From the sequence record MK295203: 64,000 bases of DNA. One strand, 5' to 3'. Every line of letters starts with the position of its first letter. The stretch's first letter is position 1. Both the position numbers and the translations under genes were made by a program. Shown here one piece after another: positions 3,495 through 60,480 of this stretch. Source of the stretch: Escherichia phage vB_EcoM_005. Under the pieces are notes generated by a model. It was not told where the DNA came from. It saw only the letters and a program-made list of their open reading frames with translations, and made no database searches.

Positions 3495-3719
3495 ATGAAA
3501 ACTTATCAAGAATTTATTACCGAAGCTAAAAGACATGAAGATGAACTGCCAATTGTTACAAAAACCTTTGATGGCACACTGGCTGATTTTAAAAAAGTCC
3601 CTAGTGATAAGCTTGCTAAATTGACTGGCTCTATCAATGAAAAAGGTGGCAAGGTCACGTTTTCTGCTGGCGGCATAGCCAATCTTAAAAAACTTTTGAA
3701 AGCCGCTGGCGCTGAATAA
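3495..3719 (+). CDS. internal protein (IP)-like with capsid targeting sequence
   Basis: N-terminus MKTYQEFITEA matches the T4 IPI/IPII/IPIII capsid-targeting signal cleaved by the prohead protease; small basic protein. Confidence 0.7.
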   Translation: MKTYQEFITEAKRHEDELPIVTKTFDGTLADFKKVPSDKLAKLTGSINEKGGKVTFSAGGIANLKKLLKAAGAE

Positions 3720-7235: not shown

Positions 7236-7265
7236 GTTTACAACCCTCAGAGGACAGGGTATAAT
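7236..7265 (+). promoter_or_regulatory. T4-type early promoter with hairpin spanning the -10
   Basis: GTTTACaaccctcagaggacagggTATAATgtcctc; inverted repeat gaggaca/tgtcctc flanks TATAAT. Confidence 0.65.
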
Positions 7266-7906: not shown

Positions 7907-7927
7907 CCGGGAGACTTCGGTCTCCCT
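7907..7927 (+). terminator. hairpin, weak terminator
   Basis: gggagacttcggtctccc followed by tattt. Confidence 0.45.
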
Positions 7928-7949: not shown

Positions 7950-8486
7950 ATGAGTTTATACGACGACCTGATATCAAATATTGATTGGTTTAAACATAGT
8001 GGTCTTTCACATGAAACTAATGCAGTTCTTTATAGAATTCGCCAAGACCTAGGTTATTCAAACGATTTCTTAAGCAGAACATCTAGCCGTGGGCATACTA
8101 CCAAATTACCCTTTATCTTTGCTTTAGCTGAGGACCTTTCTTTTGCAGATGCTTTAGAAATTATTGACCTTGAATTAGGTATACAACGTGTGGAGTTCGC
8201 TGGGCTACGCTATTCAGTATACTCTTTAAATGAACCAAGCGATTATAAACAGCTTGTTGATGCCGACGATGATTACCATTTAGTATGCTATTTGATGTTA
8301 GAAAATGGTGACCACTTTGGTATGGTCGACCGTCGCCCGAGTTATTCGGATATTAAAAATTACGATAAAGATGAGCTTATTATTTTGGCTAATGAGTATA
8401 CATCAGAGATTCGAAAACAACAACGGAAGCTTAATCGTTTTATTGCTGAATGCCGCGAATACGCTAAAGAGGTTCGTAATGTATAA
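7950..8486 (+). CDS. hypothetical protein (C-terminal FIAEC motif)
   Basis: 178-aa ORF, SD ggagga; ends ...NRFIAECREYAKEVRNV. Confidence 0.5.
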   Translation: MSLYDDLISNIDWFKHSGLSHETNAVLYRIRQDLGYSNDFLSRTSSRGHTTKLPFIFALAEDLSFADALEIIDLELGIQRVEFAGLRYSVYSLNEPSDYKQLVDADDDYHLVCYLMLENGDHFGMVDRRPSYSDIKNYDKDELIILANEYTSEIRKQQRKLNRFIAECREYAKEVRNV

Positions 8487-8832
8487 GCCTAGTAAAACCG
8501 ACCCTGGTTACGCATTAGCAGATTATGATATAGCTATTTCATTATTCCTCGGCATTGCTACTAGTATGGTTGCAGGGATAATTGGATTTCTTGTCGGCGG
8601 GATTATTAATGGTATGCCTCGCCATCCGTTTGAAGATATGAGCCTCGCGTGGATTTGGGTTCCAGCTTTAATAGGATACTTTATCCCAGTGGTCTTTGAT
8701 ATTACCCAAACCAATAAAATAAACAAGCCACGTAAAAAGAGATATGCTTTAGAGATGGCTAATTATAATGAGTATGTAAAACAAACCAAACGTAATGACC
8801 TTGAAACCTTTATTAAGGAATGTAAATCATGA
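8479..8832 (+). CDS. small membrane protein (C-terminal FIKEC motif)
   Basis: ATG overlaps upstream stop; two TM helices; ends ...ETFIKECKS. Confidence 0.5.
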   Translation: MYKPSKTDPGYALADYDIAISLFLGIATSMVAGIIGFLVGGIINGMPRHPFEDMSLAWIWVPALIGYFIPVVFDITQTNKINKPRKKRYALEMANYNEYVKQTKRNDLETFIKECKS

Positions 8833-9119
8833 ATAAAATTGAAATTGAAATCCCTGAATACAACAGCGCGCTGTCTGCAGAAAAGGCTATCTATGACCTG
8901 CTGGGTAAAGTAGACACCATCGAATCCAAATGTGAAGAAATCGCAGATGAATATGGTATTGAATTCAGCACAGGTGATTATGGTTCAGGCCGTACATATT
9001 ATCCTGTCGGTTATGAATGCTCCCAGTGGTTTAAAGATGAAATTGAAAACAACGGTGGTGAAGTTGAAAACGGCGTCGTTACAGTTGGTGCTTGGGTCTC
9101 CTCTTCAGCAATGTGCTAA
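8829..9119 (+). CDS. member 1 of tandem small-protein family (C-terminal GAWVSSSAMC)
   Basis: 96-aa acidic ORF; stop followed by taaGGAA and next start. Confidence 0.55.
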   Translation: MNKIEIEIPEYNSALSAEKAIYDLLGKVDTIESKCEEIADEYGIEFSTGDYGSGRTYYPVGYECSQWFKDEIENNGGEVENGVVTVGAWVSSSAMC

Positions 9120-9128
9120 GGAAACGCT

Positions 9129-9410
9129 ATGATGAATGATTACCGTAAAAATAAAGAACTGGCTGAAGCAGTAAATGATATCCATAAAGCTATTCGTCGT
9201 GCTGAGGAAATTGCAAACAAATATGAGACTCATTTTAATATATACCCTGCTCGCGGTATGGGCGGTGACTATTATTCTCCTGGCGCCTTGAAAGCCGACC
9301 TTGCCCACTGGGAAGAATACGGTGAAGCTCAGTATGCTATTGTAAACCAACATGATTACACTACCAGCCTAGAAAATGGTGGATGGGTGTCCTCTTCTTC
9401 TGAATGTTAA
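9129..9410 (+). CDS. member 2 of tandem small-protein family (C-terminal GGWVSSSSEC)
   Basis: 93 aa; same stop-SD junction tgttaaggaa. Confidence 0.55.
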   Translation: MMNDYRKNKELAEAVNDIHKAIRRAEEIANKYETHFNIYPARGMGGDYYSPGALKADLAHWEEYGEAQYAIVNQHDYTTSLENGGWVSSSSEC

Positions 9411-9419
9411 GGAATTATT

Positions 9420-9617
9420 ATGTCTCGTGAACTAGATTGTGCAATCCGTACTGCAGCCGCAGCTATTGAAAACGTTATCCAGATTTGTAAAGAAGAACGC
9501 GAAGAAGCTGATATCTATATCGATGGCGCTCGTGACCTAGAACGACATATCACGCTTTATAACGGTTGTATTACTATTAGTGGTACTTCCTGGGTATCAT
9601 CCTCTTACGAATGCTAA
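9420..9617 (+). CDS. member 3 of tandem small-protein family (C-terminal TSWVSSSYEC)
   Basis: 65 aa; junction tgctaaggaa. Confidence 0.55.
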   Translation: MSRELDCAIRTAAAAIENVIQICKEEREEADIYIDGARDLERHITLYNGCITISGTSWVSSSYEC

Positions 9618-9626
9618 GGAAATAAA

Positions 9627-9836
9627 ATGACTATTGATGAAATTGAAAAACAAATCCGCGAATTAGTACGTAAAGGCCAGTCCGTGGCTGACGAAACAGG
9701 TCAGCACTTCCACGCTGGAGGCGAAGAATATATTCCAGCTTCTAGTCCGGAATATGATGATTACGAATGGGCCCGTGATGATTACGGTATCCCAGATGGT
9801 GAAGGTTTCTGGTTTACATCCTCTATGTCTTGCTAA
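9627..9836 (+). CDS. member 4 of tandem small-protein family (C-terminal GFWFTSSMSC)
   Basis: 69 aa; junction tgctaaggtg. Confidence 0.55.
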   Translation: MTIDEIEKQIRELVRKGQSVADETGQHFHAGGEEYIPASSPEYDDYEWARDDYGIPDGEGFWFTSSMSC

Positions 9837-9846
9837 GGTGATAAAA

Positions 9847-10071
9847 ATGTCTGATATTAATGAATTAGAAAAAGCGGCACTTGAACTGGCTGCACTGTAT
9901 AAGAAAGTAAAAGATATGGCTTCTGCTCAGGATTTCCGTGTTGAGCTCGATGATTATGACGGTGAAGTTCGTCTCGAAGATTGGCTGAATAGCTCTTGTT
10001 ATGGTGAAGAAGCTGGTCGCACCTTCGTTGCTCAGGCCGATGGTAAAATCTGGTATCCTAGCTCATGCTAA
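9847..10071 (+). CDS. member 5 of tandem small-protein family (C-terminal KIWYPSSC)
   Basis: 74 aa from ATG at 9847; degenerate version of the tail motif. Confidence 0.5.
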   Translation: MSDINELEKAALELAALYKKVKDMASAQDFRVELDDYDGEVRLEDWLNSSCYGEEAGRTFVAQADGKIWYPSSC

Positions 10072-12766: not shown

Positions 12767-13357
12767 ATGAACGGTCCAAAAACTTTTAATTCTCAAGCTC
12801 GTGCAGTCGGTGGTTTTGCTCAAGATATCAGTAATGATATGATTAAAAATGAGCCTATGTTCTTTAATTGCGATGCTTATTTTGCTCATAAACACGGCGG
12901 TCCTATTACTCGTAGCTTTATTGAAAACCTGCCTGAAGATTGGCAATGTGGCCCTGATATTGTATTTGATTCCCGTGTACACATGTTAATGCCTGGCTGG
13001 TACCCTGCAATTCCAGGCTTCCACCATGATGATGTACCACGTCCGGATATTCCGGTCGGCCAACACTTTATTACCGCAGGGCAGCCTGATTATGATAATC
13101 CTCGTTACCATTCTGAACATATTCTTGGTCTTGTTAACGCTGGAATTGAGTCCAATGAATTAACCAAGTGGGATGCTCCTGACCGCACGTTGCTCCAGTT
13201 TGATTGGCAGACGTGGCATACCGGTTCTCGTGCAGTAAGTAATGGTTGGCGCTGGTTTGGTCGTGTCTCTCGTAATACTGACCGTGTTAAAAAGATTACT
13301 AATGAAATCCGTGTTAATGCTCAAGTTTATCTGGAATTCCCTATGGAGGGCTGGTAA
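12767..13357 (+). CDS. hypothetical protein, possible Fe(II)/2-oxoglutarate oxygenase-like
   Basis: 196 aa; HHD and downstream WHTGSRAVS could be an HxD...H...RxS facial triad; weak. Confidence 0.45.
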   Translation: MNGPKTFNSQARAVGGFAQDISNDMIKNEPMFFNCDAYFAHKHGGPITRSFIENLPEDWQCGPDIVFDSRVHMLMPGWYPAIPGFHHDDVPRPDIPVGQHFITAGQPDYDNPRYHSEHILGLVNAGIESNELTKWDAPDRTLLQFDWQTWHTGSRAVSNGWRWFGRVSRNTDRVKKITNEIRVNAQVYLEFPMEGW

Positions 13358-13944
13358 TGGCCCTTTATGAACCTGGGTGTATGGGCATTGATGCAAACTT
13401 CATCCGTCGGTCGGAAAATGCTGGAATTATTATCCCAAGTGGTGAGAATATGATTATTAAAAAGTCCTGGCGAAATATCGATGACTGTGATGAAGGAATT
13501 TCAGCCAGTACAATAGATTGGTCAGGTTGTACTGCCGAAATGAAACAGCTTTTAATTGAGGAATATAAAATGGGCTATATTGTAAACGGCTGGCAAGCGG
13601 AACCACATAAAGAACAGACTCCAGACCCATTGATTTGTTATAGCAAAAAATACGGCTTCCGTGCCTGGAGTGATGAATACGACAAATTGGTGAGTTCTAG
13701 ATTCTATGTTTGGATGGGTATATTATTTTTCCCACTCCTAGGGTTTTTCCTGACAACAGATAATGACCTGCCTATTTGTGTATTCGCTTCAGCGATGTCT
13801 GCTGCTATCTTAGGTCTTATCGCATCATTTTTATGGACCTCTGTTATCGAAGTACCTTTTCGTATTTCTAAAGTTAAAAAGGTATATGACGATATCACTA
13901 AGAAAAATACATTAAACTCTTTTATTAAGGAATGCCGTAAATGA
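13357..13944 (+). CDS. membrane-anchored protein (C-terminal FIKEC motif)
   Basis: 195 aa; soluble N-domain then two TM helices; ends ...NSFIKECRK. Confidence 0.5.
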   Translation: MALYEPGCMGIDANFIRRSENAGIIIPSGENMIIKKSWRNIDDCDEGISASTIDWSGCTAEMKQLLIEEYKMGYIVNGWQAEPHKEQTPDPLICYSKKYGFRAWSDEYDKLVSSRFYVWMGILFFPLLGFFLTTDNDLPICVFASAMSAAILGLIASFLWTSVIEVPFRISKVKKVYDDITKKNTLNSFIKECRK

Positions 13945-14177
13945 GCATTGCAATTTATATTAAATCTGAGTCATGTGATTCTTATCTGTATTCCTATGAT
14001 ACCGGAACATCAGAAGAGAAAATTAAAGAAGACTTAGAAAGCGATATGGATATGTTCTGTCCTATTGGTGACTATATGCTTCAAGTGTCTGATAGTGAAA
14101 GTCCATCATCAGAAAATAGACTTCAAATTATTATGCAAGATATTTTTAAACAATCATGGGAACGAGACGATGAGTAA
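13941..14177 (+). CDS. small acidic protein, hypothetical
   Basis: 78 aa ORF overlapping neighbours by ATGA. Confidence 0.45.
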   Translation: MSIAIYIKSESCDSYLYSYDTGTSEEKIKEDLESDMDMFCPIGDYMLQVSDSESPSSENRLQIIMQDIFKQSWERDDE

Positions 14178-14649: not shown

Positions 14650-15081
14650 ATGGATATTTTTGATATGTTACGTCAAGACGAAGGTCTTGATTTAAATCTT
14701 TATAAAGACACTGAAGGTTATTGGACTATTGGTATTGGCCAATTGATTACTAAGAACCCTTCTAAAGATGTTGCTCGTGCTGAACTTGATAAGCTTATGG
14801 GTCGAGTTTGTAATGGTCGTATTACTATGGCTGAAGCTGAACAACTCTTTAACCGATCGGTTGAAAATGCTCGTAGAGCTATTCTGCGTAATCCTAAATT
14901 GAAACCTGTTTATGATGTACTGGACGAAGTTCGTCGTTGTGCTTTAATTAACATGGTCTTCCAAATGGGTGAAGCAGGCGTAGCAGGGTTCACTAACTCT
15001 TTACGTATGCTCCAACAGAAACGTTGGAACGATGCGGCAGTTAACCTGGTTTATCGCAGAGAATGTAATTCCTGCATCTAA
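14650..15081 (+). CDS. e: lysozyme (T4 e-type endolysin) with divergent short C-terminus
   Basis: [26 protein letters not shown]...[30 protein letters not shown] matches T4 lysozyme incl. catalytic E11/D20/T26 equivalents; last ~10 aa ([10 protein letters not shown]) do not match T4 and protein is ~20 aa short. Confidence 0.85.
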
Positions 15082-15094
15082 AGAACTTTTGGCG

Positions 15095-15430
15095 ATGTTT
15101 GAATCTGAAGAGTTCACTGAAGAACTGAATGAGAACCTGACCCAGGCCACTCCTCAGGTTATTCGCGTTCGTAACGCTCTGCAGACAGGCATGCAGGCCC
15201 GCGTATCTAAGACTATGAAGCTGGCATTCACCACTTCTAAAAATGAAGACTATGGCGACGGTATTGCAATGAACACTGGACAGTATTATGTCGAGTGGAA
15301 TGGTGAAACCGGTACGGCTAAGATTCGTCAGACACGTGCAGCGGGTGGTAAAATGTTAGACCTTAAACTGAACGTTAAAGAGAAAGACGTCGCGGCTTTG
15401 TTCAAGAATTGGATGAAAACCTACAAATAA
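15095..15430 (+). CDS. hypothetical protein
   Basis: 111 aa from ATG at 15095 (longer track ORF from 15032 overlaps the lysozyme 3' end). Confidence 0.4.
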   Translation: MFESEEFTEELNENLTQATPQVIRVRNALQTGMQARVSKTMKLAFTTSKNEDYGDGIAMNTGQYYVEWNGETGTAKIRQTRAAGGKMLDLKLNVKEKDVAALFKNWMKTYK

Positions 15431-58248: not shown

Positions 58249-58597
58249 TGGTTTACTAAAGAATGGCCGGCATTGGTGAACTCTGTCAATCCAGGGACCT
58301 ATTCTAAATTGAAATGCCTGAGCCTCGTTTGGTTATTCCAATTTTCAATAAGAATAAACAAATTGAAAGTTTTCAGGGTCGAGCCTTACGTAAAGATGCT
58401 CCACAAAAATATATTACAATACGTTGTGGTTTACTAAAGAATGGCCGGCATTAGTTAACTCTGTGAATCCAGGGACCTATTCTAAAGAAATGCCTGAACC
58501 TCGTTTGGTTATTCCAATTTTCAATAAGAATAAACAAATTGAAAGTTTTCAGGGTCGAGCCTTACGTAAAGATGCTCCACAAAAATATATTACAATA
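58249..58597 (+). repeat. tandem duplication, 2 x ~172 bp, copies differ by a 2-nt indel
   Basis: 58249-58421 and 58427-58597; first copy has ctaaattgaaatg vs ctaaagaaatg. Confidence 0.9.
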
Positions 58598-59636: not shown

Positions 59637-60056
59637 ATGGCACACTTTAACGAATGCGCAAACCTGATTGCTGGTGTTGATAAAGCTGAGGAAGCTTATT
59701 TTAATGCTCTGATTCACGAAGATAAGGACCCTCTGCAGGTTATGTTGCGTGAACAGAAAGATTGTATTGACGATGAATTCCGTGAACTTCTGACTTCCCT
59801 CGGTGAAATGTCTAAAGGTGAGAAAGATGCATCTGCTGTATGGAAAAAATGGAAAGCCCGTTACCCGGAAGCACAAGCCAAACCTATTTCAGAAATGTCT
59901 CCTGAAGACCAGCTTGAAATTAAATTTGAACTCATTGATATTATGCACTTCGTATTCAATATGGCTATTGGCTTGAATATGTCGGCTGAAGAAATGTTTA
60001 AACTTTATTACCTGAAAAATAAACACAACTTTGAACGCCAGGACAATGGATATTAA
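59637..60056 (+). CDS. 56: dCTP pyrophosphatase gp56 copy A (MazG-like), apparently lacking a middle segment
   Basis: MAHFNECA..I.GVDKA...DPLQVML then REQKDCIDDEFRELLTSLGEMS.GEK.ASAVWKKWKARY...EMSPEDQLEIKFEL.D..HFV.NM..GL.M.AEE.FKLYYLKNK.NF.RQD.GY, matching recalled T4 gp56 ends. Confidence 0.75.
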   Translation: MAHFNECANLIAGVDKAEEAYFNALIHEDKDPLQVMLREQKDCIDDEFRELLTSLGEMSKGEKDASAVWKKWKARYPEAQAKPISEMSPEDQLEIKFELIDIMHFVFNMAIGLNMSAEEMFKLYYLKNKHNFERQDNGY

Positions 60057-60106
60057 TTTCAAATCCGTTCTTAAAGAAAAGTTCCCGCAATGGGAACTTT
60101 TAGAAG
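60008..60106 (+). repeat. 99-bp direct repeat, copy 1 (3' end of dCTPase copy A plus junction)
   Basis: identical to 60430-60528. Confidence 0.9.
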
Positions 60107-60480
60107 ATAAACCTGAATATAACCGTCATCCTGATGACTTGGCTACTGCAGGTGAAGTTGTTGATTGGTTGCGCAATCAGAAAGATTATATTGATGATGA
60201 ATTCCGCGAACTTCTGACTTCTCTTGGTGGCATGAGCAATGGCGAAAAAGATGCGAGCGCTGTATGGAAGCCTTGGAAAGCTCAACATGCTGAACGTCGT
60301 GAAACCCTGATTAACGATTTGTCTCCTGAAGACCAGCTCGAAATTAAATTCGAAATGATTGATATTCTGCACTTTGTTCTGAATATGTTCCAAGGTCTTG
60401 GACTGACTGCTGAAGAAATCTTTAAACTGTATTACCTGAAAAATAAACACAACTTTGAACGCCAGGACAATGGATATTAA
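60046..60480 (+). CDS. dCTP pyrophosphatase gp56 copy B (diverged paralog/allele), lacking the N-terminal segment
   Basis: YNRHPDDLATAGEVVDWLRNQKDYIDDEFRELLTSLG... ; ~75 percent nt identity to copy A body, identical 99-bp 3' end. Confidence 0.7.
   Translation: MDINFKSVLKEKFPQWELLEDKPEYNRHPDDLATAGEVVDWLRNQKDYIDDEFRELLTSLGGMSNGEKDASAVWKPWKAQHAERRETLINDLSPEDQLEIKFEMIDILHFVLNMFQGLGLTAEEIFKLYYLKNKHNFERQDNGY

Follow-up and report, generated by a model that had tools for sequence, protein, structure and literature searches.

The subject of this analysis is a 64,000-nucleotide (nt) stretch of the genome of Escherichia phage vB_EcoM_005 (record MK295203), hereafter the window, and in particular three of its genes, here called P1, P2 and P3, whose products close with a similar short C-terminal tail containing F-I-[KA]-E-C. 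In a megablast search the region matches the Dhakavirus group of T-even coliphages (JS98, Bp7, LHE83) at 91-96% identity, and we assign the window to a Dhakavirus, a JS98/Bp7-like T-even coliphage. Bp7 is annotated with e.6 first, then three genes without names and others, and after these e.2, one small gene, nudE and e, and the order over the matching stretch of T4 is e.6, e.5, e.4, e.3, e.2, nudE and e; judged by this order, the tail-bearing genes sit in the 'e.8-e' early-gene stretch of T4. The genes, and the parts of them that matter here, are as follows (SD, Shine-Dalgarno sequence; TM, transmembrane; aa, amino acids).

7950-8486, + strand: P1, 178 aa, soluble; counterpart of T4 e.5 by position and tail (phrog_8788).
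8439-8456, + strand: P1 tail motif F-I-A-E-C-R (TTT ATT GCT GAA TGC CGC), with no SD use here.
8466-8481, + strand: P1/P2 junction, with the SD AAAGAGGTT at 8466-8474 and the P2 ATG at 8479-8481, within the last P1 codons (K-E-V-R-N).
8479-8832, + strand: P2, 117 aa, a predicted two-TM hairpin plus a long basic cytoplasmic helix; T4 e.3/e.4-type family (phrog_2330).
8773-8829, + strand: C-terminal 19 residues of P2, YVKQTKRNDLETFIKECKS, the sole part of P2 that can be aligned with the e.2 family.
8809-8832, + strand: P2 junction F-I-K-E-C-K-S-stop, with AAGGA at 8815-8819, the next ATG at 8829-8831 and the TGA stop at 8830-8832.
13357-13944, + strand: P3, 195 aa, long-form e.2 with an N-terminal Phage_T4_Y06M domain, two TM segments and the tail (phrog_2203).
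13921-13944, + strand: P3 junction F-I-K-E-C-R-K-stop, with AAGGA at 13927-13931, the next ATG at 13941-13943 and the TGA stop at 13942-13944.

That three genes end in this tail had been proposed in an earlier reading made from the letters alone (the sequence-only reading), and a six-frame search confirms it, with the open reading frames (ORFs) and their ends as claimed: FI[KA]EC matches exactly three times, where ~0.04 matches are expected from residue frequencies, and each match lies near the end of one of these + strand genes. P1 ends in NRFIAECREYAKEVRNV, P2 in LETFIKECKS and P3 in LNSFIKECRK, each directly before its stop codon. P2 and P3 also have an identical 14-mer, TTTATTAAGGAATG, found at 8809 and 13921 only. 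The same reading held that the codons att-AAG-GAA of the P2 and P3 tails supply the AAGGA SD for an overlapping start, and this too is correct: AAGGA is followed by a spacer of 8-9 nt, AUUAAGGAA forms the best anti-SD duplex (-6.1 kcal/mol, 8-nt spacer), and the ATGs at 8829 and 13941 overlap the upstream stops as ATGA (8829-8832 and 13941-13944). Each of these ATGs is closely preceded by an in-frame stop, which leaves the downstream genes without an N-terminal extension. RNA folding at the three junctions gave z-scores of +0.45, +0.99 and -0.46, no better than shuffles; there is no convincing promoter-like site at 8780-8832 or 13900-13944 (one 9/12 match lies at 8801-8830, and the overall count of promoter-like sites is below shuffled expectation), and no terminator signal at the junctions.

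We identify P2 as an e.3-type protein. Its start (MYKPS..) is backed by all homologs, and residues 1-116 align by tblastn with e.3 of RB69 (2e-5) and of T4 (2e-3). Profile searches match P2 to P0079 (T4-e.3-like; 5.7e-6), P0080 (RB69 e.3; 7.3e-4) and phrog_2330 (1.9e-43), and an exhaustive search with the P2 profile recovers only seven representative clusters, all T-even e.3-like, six of which have tails (FIKECKS in two, FIREVRNAKTR, FIDDCKNWR, FVRDCRKTK and FIKECRK), the seventh being a 42-aa fragment. In an hhalign comparison the e.3 and e.4 sets match with an E of 2.4e-6 over 56 columns, and with an E of 5e-5 and a probability of 67% when the N-terminus and tail are cut; the T4 e.4 family corresponds to Pfam Phage_T4_Y06O. 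P3, which matches phrog_2203 at 3.6e-70, we identify as the long form of e.2: PF26896 (Phage_T4_Y06M) is annotated on all P3 homologs in precomputed data, and the N-terminal domain W-x-x-LDDGDEG..VDW..C has columns that are invariant across homologs. Roughly 600 genomes of the Tevenvirinae contain e.2. Stand-alone proteins with two TM segments and the tail match the C-terminal half of the e.2 profile. P1 occupies the position of T4 e.5, directly after e.6, with its start behind a hairpin and an overlapping membrane-protein gene next, and the two have ..[RK]F[IV]xECREY.. in common; BLASTP finds no match between P1 and T4 e.5 beyond the tail. A Pfam scan of P1, P2, P3 and their neighbours gave no significant family, the copy used apparently being without the PF26896 model; their PHROGs are function-unknown families only, and a literature search on the function of T4 e.2-e.5 found nothing relevant.

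The tail is found throughout the relatives of these genes. In T4, e.5 ends in LLEKFVKECREYVKAITIPSK (which contains KFVKECREY), e.4 in IMKFVKESRCKSQS (tail KFVKESRCKSQS) and e.3 in MKEFVIDCRKIK (EFVIDCRKIK), in each case followed by the stop codon. Over e.5, e.4, e.3 and long e.2 the consensus is L-x-x-F-[IV]-x-[ED]-[C/V]-[RK], and it is present in T4, RB69, SP18, Kanagawaviruses and metagenomic relatives as well as in the stand-alone two-TM relatives. RB69 e.2 ends in ERFITECRNLR, RB69 ORF133c in NFIKECRGK and the intact Tequatrovirus e.2 of phage HP3 in NFITECRKLK, all at the stop codon; Kanagawavirus e.2 and an extra 106-aa two-TM protein have F[IV]KGCRNGR.., and four consecutive genes of the metagenomic T4-like contig L014 carry the tail. 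Within families it is the steadiest part: F-I-[EK]-E-C-R-K is invariant in the e.2 family, whose TM half has less than 25% identity, LETFIKECKS is invariant in the P2 family, and RFIxECREYAK is invariant in the P1 family save for x (A/K/T). The description of P1, P2 and P3 as unrelated is thus fair for their bodies, which can hardly be aligned, if at all, but all three belong to a syntenic e.5/e.3-e.4/e.2 cluster with a shared tail, and the tail is best seen as a hallmark of that one cluster.

These comparisons bear on the simplest alternative, that three unrelated C-termini resemble each other by chance in an AT-rich genome. Chance alone would give the ~132 window proteins about 0.4 shared 5-mers within their last 12 residues, and a second shared tail 5-mer, ASDEE, is indeed present; pairwise BLASTP E values among the three proteins are 2e-4 to 1e-2, which fails multiple testing (~8600 pairs); and the 14-mer, when up to 2 mismatches are allowed, is found 11 times versus 1.6 expected, the extras being compositional look-alikes inside unrelated genes. 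Against chance, all three genes lie within one syntenic cluster, and the same motif is present in the homologous genes of T4, RB69, SP18, the Kanagawaviruses and metagenomic contigs. Moreover, a hidden Markov model (HMM) of 21 tails finds only e-cluster genes in the 64-kb window (next E ~0.5), and in T4 0-76.5 kb only e.5, e.3 and the 3' remnant of e.2, to which a regular expression adds e.4. The exact junction pattern, searched for in IMG/VR, is confined to e.3/e.2 of T-even phages plus 4 chance matches. We give chance resemblance almost no credence, and regard it as already refuted by the comparative data.

Some annotated reading frames among these relatives call for comment in their own right. 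The T4 reference e.2 (NC_000866 67472-67960, minus strand; annotated as 102 aa) has a -1 shift in an A-run and a +1 shift ~75 nt later, and read through both shifts it is the 162-aa e.2 of phage HP3, tail NFITECRKLK and stop included; either the gene is a genuine pseudogene or the reference carries an old sequencing error. The annotated T4 nudE ATG falls inside the GAATGC (E-C codons) of the e.2 tail, and a second ATG with AGGAAA upstream appears the likelier start. For RB69 e.4 (L013 3070-3465), an upstream in-frame ATG gives MSKPTLYMPSKP, matching T4 e.4 MSKPSLYLPSKP, and the annotated start is probably 21 nt too late. Similarly, for the L014 e.2 homolog, called from 1171, the ATG at 1195 with GGAGGT before it is the probable start.

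To separate constraint on the peptide from constraint on the RNA we drew up a table of 29 junctions, taken from two metagenomic lineages and from Dhaka-, Gapriver-, Mosig-, Tequatro- and Kanagawaviruses, with the following residues and codons.

Phe position: F 29/29; TTT 23, TTC 6.
I/V position: I 21, V 8; ATT 19, GTT 6, GTG 2, ATA 1, ATC 1.
x position: 10 different residues, 12 different codons.
E/D position: E 22, D 3, G 3, M 1; GAA 20, GAT 3, GGA 3, GAG 2, ATG 1.
Cys position: C 24/29, else V, S or I (mostly e.4-type); TGT 12, TGC 12.
R/K position: R 25, K 4; CGT 8, AGA 6, CGA 6, AGG 4, AAA 4, CGC 1.

The residues of the motif are kept while synonymous codons turn over freely, and the Leu at -3 likewise is conserved and written with several codons; the peptide itself therefore appears to be under selection. 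The x position, by comparison, varies widely, and its codons are best understood from where the SD lies, by which the junctions fall into three classes.

Class A: Phe codon to next ATG 17-22 nt; SD in the x/E codons; P2, P3 and all e.4.
Class B: Phe codon to next ATG 26-28 nt; SD in AGG-AAx, or in CGA-GGA for R-G.
Class C: Phe codon to next ATG 31-40 nt; SD beyond the motif; P1 family, L014 e.3 and e.2.

Class A also includes RB69 e.5 (ATG-GAA) and P0076 (AGA-GAA), both with a weak SD; class B comprises T4/HP3 e.3 and RB69/HP3 e.2 (AGG), and ORF133c and the L014 111-aa protein (CGA-GGA). Where x is Lys, the codon is AAG in all ten class A junctions with the xAG-GAA register and AAA in all four of classes B and C; where x is Glu it is GAG in both cases, and where the Arg codon serves as SD it is AGG (4/4 junctions). 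Window-wide, the use of AAG is 0.29, of GAG 0.21, and of AGG 0.05 of Arg. The association of the x codon with SD position is significant (Fisher p = 0.005, on a conservative count of ~6 versus 4 independent lineages). In the e.2 family x has a charge-reversing K/E polymorphism in which RAG-GAA is kept, the codon always being AAG or GAG.

It could be supposed from these patterns that the constraint is purely one of RNA, with the codons dictated by the downstream SD and the A/U-rich sequence around it, whatever the amino acids. AAGGA or GAGGA does lie within P2, P3 and most e.3/e.4 junctions, with the AAG/GAG codon bias just described; Kanagawavirus tails have exchanged E for G and yet kept AAGGA; an 18-nt sequence, AAGGAATGTAAATCATGA, is invariant across five lineages, synonymous sites included; and throughout the window SDs commonly fall within the final codons of the preceding gene, as they do at most of its ~70 tight junctions, with TAAGGA the favourite SD. 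However, F, I/V, C and R/K, and the Leu at -3 with its different codons, are retained despite synonymous turnover, and other coupled junctions of the window have an SD without this peptide. The motif also stays where the SD lies later or outside the gene: in the P1 family the tail is 31-40 nt before the next start, with x being GCT, AAA or ACT, and L014 e.2 keeps it although a 9-nt gap, and no overlap, separates it from the next gene. We consider a constraint on the RNA alone very unlikely. The sequence-only reading had described the shared tail as at least partly an RNA-level constraint, and this stands in part: the x codon, and sometimes the Arg codon, follows the SD, but the motif is mainly a protein-level one. 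The refuting observation that it named, homologs with the tail but no overlapping downstream gene, has been made: L014 e.2 is such a case, and the tail is kept without an SD role in the P1 family, T4 e.3, RB69 e.2, ORF133c and L014 e.3. The tail would thus be mainly a protein-level motif, with an SD overlaid on a free position or on the Arg codon and occasionally bending the peptide.

The reading we favour, and think probable, is that a conserved C-terminal helix motif of the e.5/e.4/e.3/long e.2 cluster also carries the SD of the next overlapping gene. The tail would be the end of a cytoplasmic C-terminal helix of ~20 residues in e.5, e.4, e.3, long e.2 and the stand-alone two-TM relatives, and the genes are packed head to tail, their translation presumably coupled. 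Where the next start comes 17-28 nt after the Phe codon, the next SD must fall within the tail codons. There are two solutions to this, the first using the protein-free x together with the Glu codon, so that xAG-GAA yields AAGGA or GAGGA (as in P2 and P3), and the second using the Arg codon, as AGG-AAx or CGA-GGA; where the next start is more distant, as in P1, the motif stays and x drifts to GCT, AAA or ACT. The double-coded junction of tail, SD and start is thereby the best-conserved DNA of these fast-diverging genes, recurring at successive gene boundaries.

Several points weigh against this reading. Tail similarity within the window alone is not statistically compelling, and since the window alone proves none, its significance rests on the homologs in other phages; the sample of 29 junctions is small, and its lineages are partly non-independent. 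The profile comparisons depend heavily on the tail: by hhalign the P1 family matches e.5 with an E of 1.3e-5 over 99 columns with the tail and of 0.35 without it, the P2 family matches the C-terminal half of e.2 with an E of 2e-6 over 19 columns only, with nothing when the last 12 residues are left out, and a tail-less profile comparison of ORF133c with e.3 detects no similarity. Common descent of the whole proteins would accordingly be proven only for the e.3-type proteins, and weakly for e.3/e.4. Nor is the peptide fixed, as e.4-type tails have V, S or I in place of Cys, and in the Kanagawaviruses Glu is replaced by Gly, AAA-GGA again spelling AAGGA; to judge from this Gly, RNA constraint can override the peptide. 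Finally, the patch that diverges from Bp7 is at 8530-8650, inside P2, and breakpoints are not all at junctions.

The predicted structures give some indication of what the peptide may do. Hydropathy identifies two hydrophobic segments in P2, two in P3 and none in P1, in agreement with the earlier proposal that both FIKEC proteins are membrane-anchored. The AlphaFold2 model of P2 (mean pLDDT, the per-residue confidence score, 85.5) is a helical hairpin with helices at 18-45 and 57-116, in which the TM2 helix is unbroken to residue 116 and the tail has a pLDDT of 85-91; the model of P1 (pLDDT 46) is too poor for use. After TM2, P2 is strongly basic, with 11 K+R in its last 45 residues, and because of this basic stretch the positive-inside rule places the P2 tail in the cytoplasm. 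L108, F111, I112 and C115 are at i, i+3, i+4 and i+7 and form a hydrophobic stripe at the end of the helix. A redox or metal role of the Cys is unlikely because Val or Ile can replace it. We infer that the tail helix may be an interaction or oligomerisation surface at the inner membrane face, possibly between co-translated products of the cluster.

Breakpoints and indels, too, are found at these junctions, and one such breakpoint is in P3.

13588-13920, + strand: variable TM cassette of e.2, with 30-50% nucleotide identity to the QL01/VR5-type allele and flanks at 96-100%.

Compared with a QL01-type Dhakavirus allele (L008), P3 is 96-100% identical to ~13588, 30-50% identical to ~13915, and 96-100% identical again from the TTTATT at 13921; the right breakpoint is exactly at this TTTATT, the P3 junction. 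The divergent cassette is of the Tequatrovirus type (IEMPWRLRRQQ..; 36-39% versus 21-22% identity). At P2, 30 nt of the junction (8814-8843) match SP18 and L017 at 96-100% identity, between flanks at 50-66%, and in comparison with JS10 the divergent P2 body starts exactly at the P1/P2 ATG. The P1/P2 junction, besides being the left breakpoint of this P2 cassette, is the site of a difference in gene content: in SP18 and L017 the e.5-type gene is separated from the e.3-type gene by e.4, which the window lacks. With the window P1/P2 junction being GCTAAAGAGGTTCGTAATG, the SP18 e.5/e.4 junction GCTAAAGGGGTTCAAAATG and the SP18 e.4/e.3 junction ATTAAGGAGGTTCGTAATG, the first looks like a chimera of the other two. 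Relative to PEi20, phage Q7622 has an extra 106-aa two-TM gene between direct repeats TTYGTTAAAGGATGYCGWAATGGSCGTA, which are ~28 nt of junction. Broken genes with the tail DNA left in place are represented by the T4 reference e.2 and by e.3 of L034 (IMG/VR 2974739009, RB69-like; reverse strand, ~3402), from which ~250 nt are deleted, the first codons and the last ~30 codons surviving together with the tail and the next-gene junction. The suggestion that the tail may serve as a micro-homology for module exchange thus gains from the breakpoints and indels at junctions, but some breakpoints lie elsewhere and the sample is small; a role of the junctions in recombination is suggestive. Under the favoured reading, recombination joints (cassette swaps, and gain or loss of small membrane-protein genes) lie at junctions probably because these are conserved, recurring DNA.

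Such events invite the opposite view, in which the tail is a passive scar, without function and inherited only since recombination or deletion must spare the downstream ribosome-binding site (RBS). Its presence on otherwise dissimilar bodies, the breakpoint exactly at the tail in the e.2 cassette, and the tails left after the body was broken or deleted (T4 reference e.2, L034 e.3) are what such a scar would look like. Yet the amino acids are conserved with synonymous change across genera, the conserved block reaches ~19 residues upstream of the SD, with the i, i+3, i+4, i+7 pattern and a confidently predicted helix, and the P1 family retains the motif far from any RBS. We therefore think a functionless scar unlikely. 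A more ambitious proposal, which we hold to be rather doubtful, is that tail, SD and start form a coding 'plug' of 25-30 nt that serves recombination, translation and protein assembly at once. As DNA it would offer homology for insertion, deletion and swap of membrane-protein cassettes in e.2-e.6, an intragenic counterpart of the promoter-early stem-loop (PeSL); as peptide it would put the same cytoplasmic helix end on each new cassette, for docking to a common partner or to proteins of the cluster; and as RNA it would keep the downstream gene translationally coupled.

The genes that follow the P2 and P3 junctions, and some other features of the window, are described here.

8829-9119, + strand: gene downstream of P2, 96 aa, acidic, presumed to be translationally coupled; first of five tandem small paralogs.
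13941-14177, + strand: gene downstream of P3, 78 aa, acidic, a homolog of RB69 ORF130c, presumed to be coupled; nudE is next.

A duplicated two-gene module, in which the genes at 8829 and 13941 would be homologous, is not supported: BLASTP finds no similarity between them. The 78-aa gene is the only one between P3 and nudE, and there is likewise one in Bp7, JS10, SP18 and RB69. The five tandem small acidic genes at 8829-10071 (96, 93, 65, 69 and ~74 aa) end in W[VF]SSSxxC or YPSSC at the stop codon and are mostly followed by TAAGGA, 6 nt and ATG; such an array is also found behind e.3 in RB69, SP18 and L017. Upstream of the cluster, a promoter-like site near consensus (TTTACA-17-TATAAT) precedes e.6 at 7237-7265, and a hairpin, GGGAGAC-TTCG-GTCTCCC, separates e.6 from P1 at 7909-7926, with GGAGGAGAGGAG and then the start of P1 behind it; T4 and L017 have a similar hairpin at the same place. 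Six genes (at 3495, 3721, 5775, 15513, 16138 and 16960) start with MKTY[QKN]EFITE.., a capsid-targeting-type N-terminus of T4 internal proteins, and form two groups that flank the e cluster on both sides. In the lysozyme gene e (14650-15430) the last ~28 codons are replaced relative to Bp7, and the window contains no copy of the lost part elsewhere. The gene is overlapped by an ORF, 15032-15430, that ends in ..NWMKTYK before its stop, which resembles how the following internal-protein genes begin, MKTY[KQ]EFITEA. The replaced end of e may be a scar of recombination, or it may come from a chimeric assembly. Elsewhere in the window, a direct repeat of ~44 nt (58252-58295 and 58430-58473, the copies being 178 nt apart) encodes WFTKEWPALVNSVNP twice, and two neighbouring paralogs, 59637-60056 and 60046-60480, are identical over stretches at their C-terminal ends.

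The common C-terminal helix motif is the first shared, testable feature of the orphan T4 genes e.2-e.5, and its junctions are a natural experiment on double coding, in which the peptide is constant, the SD hops between two codon positions, and synonymous choice follows. None of the components is unusual, be it a C-terminal motif specific to a family, coupled translation or mosaic recombination within a hyperplastic region, and it is their combination that yields a neat 'floating' SD; with no single ingredient new, the value is illustrative, not conceptual.

In relation to known systems, the T4 genes e.2-e.5 and those of the window are alike in their order after e.6 and before nudE/e and in having the tail on all, with P2 and P3 homologous to e.3 and e.2. 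They differ in that Dhakavirus is without e.4, has ~4.5 kb of other genes between the e.3-type gene and e.2, and has a long e.2, while T4 e.5 and P1 are alike in position and tail only. The junctions also resemble coupled ATGA gene pairs in general, in the stop/start overlap, in an SD 5-10 nt upstream within the upstream ORF, and in the AAG/GAG/AGG bias at the SD; Eyre-Walker (1996, J Mol Evol) reportedly found that an overlapping downstream SD affects codon use at gene ends. Here, by contrast, the SD overlies a peptide motif conserved across several gene families, and it shifts between two codon positions of that motif across lineages.

A second comparison is with the PeSL cassettes that mediate modular shuffling in T4-type phages, which are intergenic and have a sigma-70 promoter and a stem-loop (PMC2839356, PMC4122927). 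Both PeSLs and tail junctions are short and conserved, end in an SD and a start codon, and are repeated at boundaries in hyperplastic regions, where the repeats flank genes that are gained, lost or replaced (e.4, the extra gene of Q7622, and the e.2 and P2 cassettes). The tail junctions differ in lying within coding sequence, with no promoter-like site and no significant structure, and in that recombination at them is deduced from sequence; with neither promoter nor stem-loop, they are ruled out as PeSLs themselves. If the junction does guide recombination, the PeSL idea of targeted shuffling would extend from intergenic cassettes to coding-sequence junctions. Botstein's modular theory is said to have envisaged conserved boundary 'linker' sequences between the exchangeable modules of lambdoid phages. 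Lambdoid linkers and tail junctions are alike in being short and conserved and in lying at gene boundaries to which mosaic joints tend to fall, and unlike in that the tail junctions belong to another phage group and that their double function, as peptide and as RBS, would explain their conservation.

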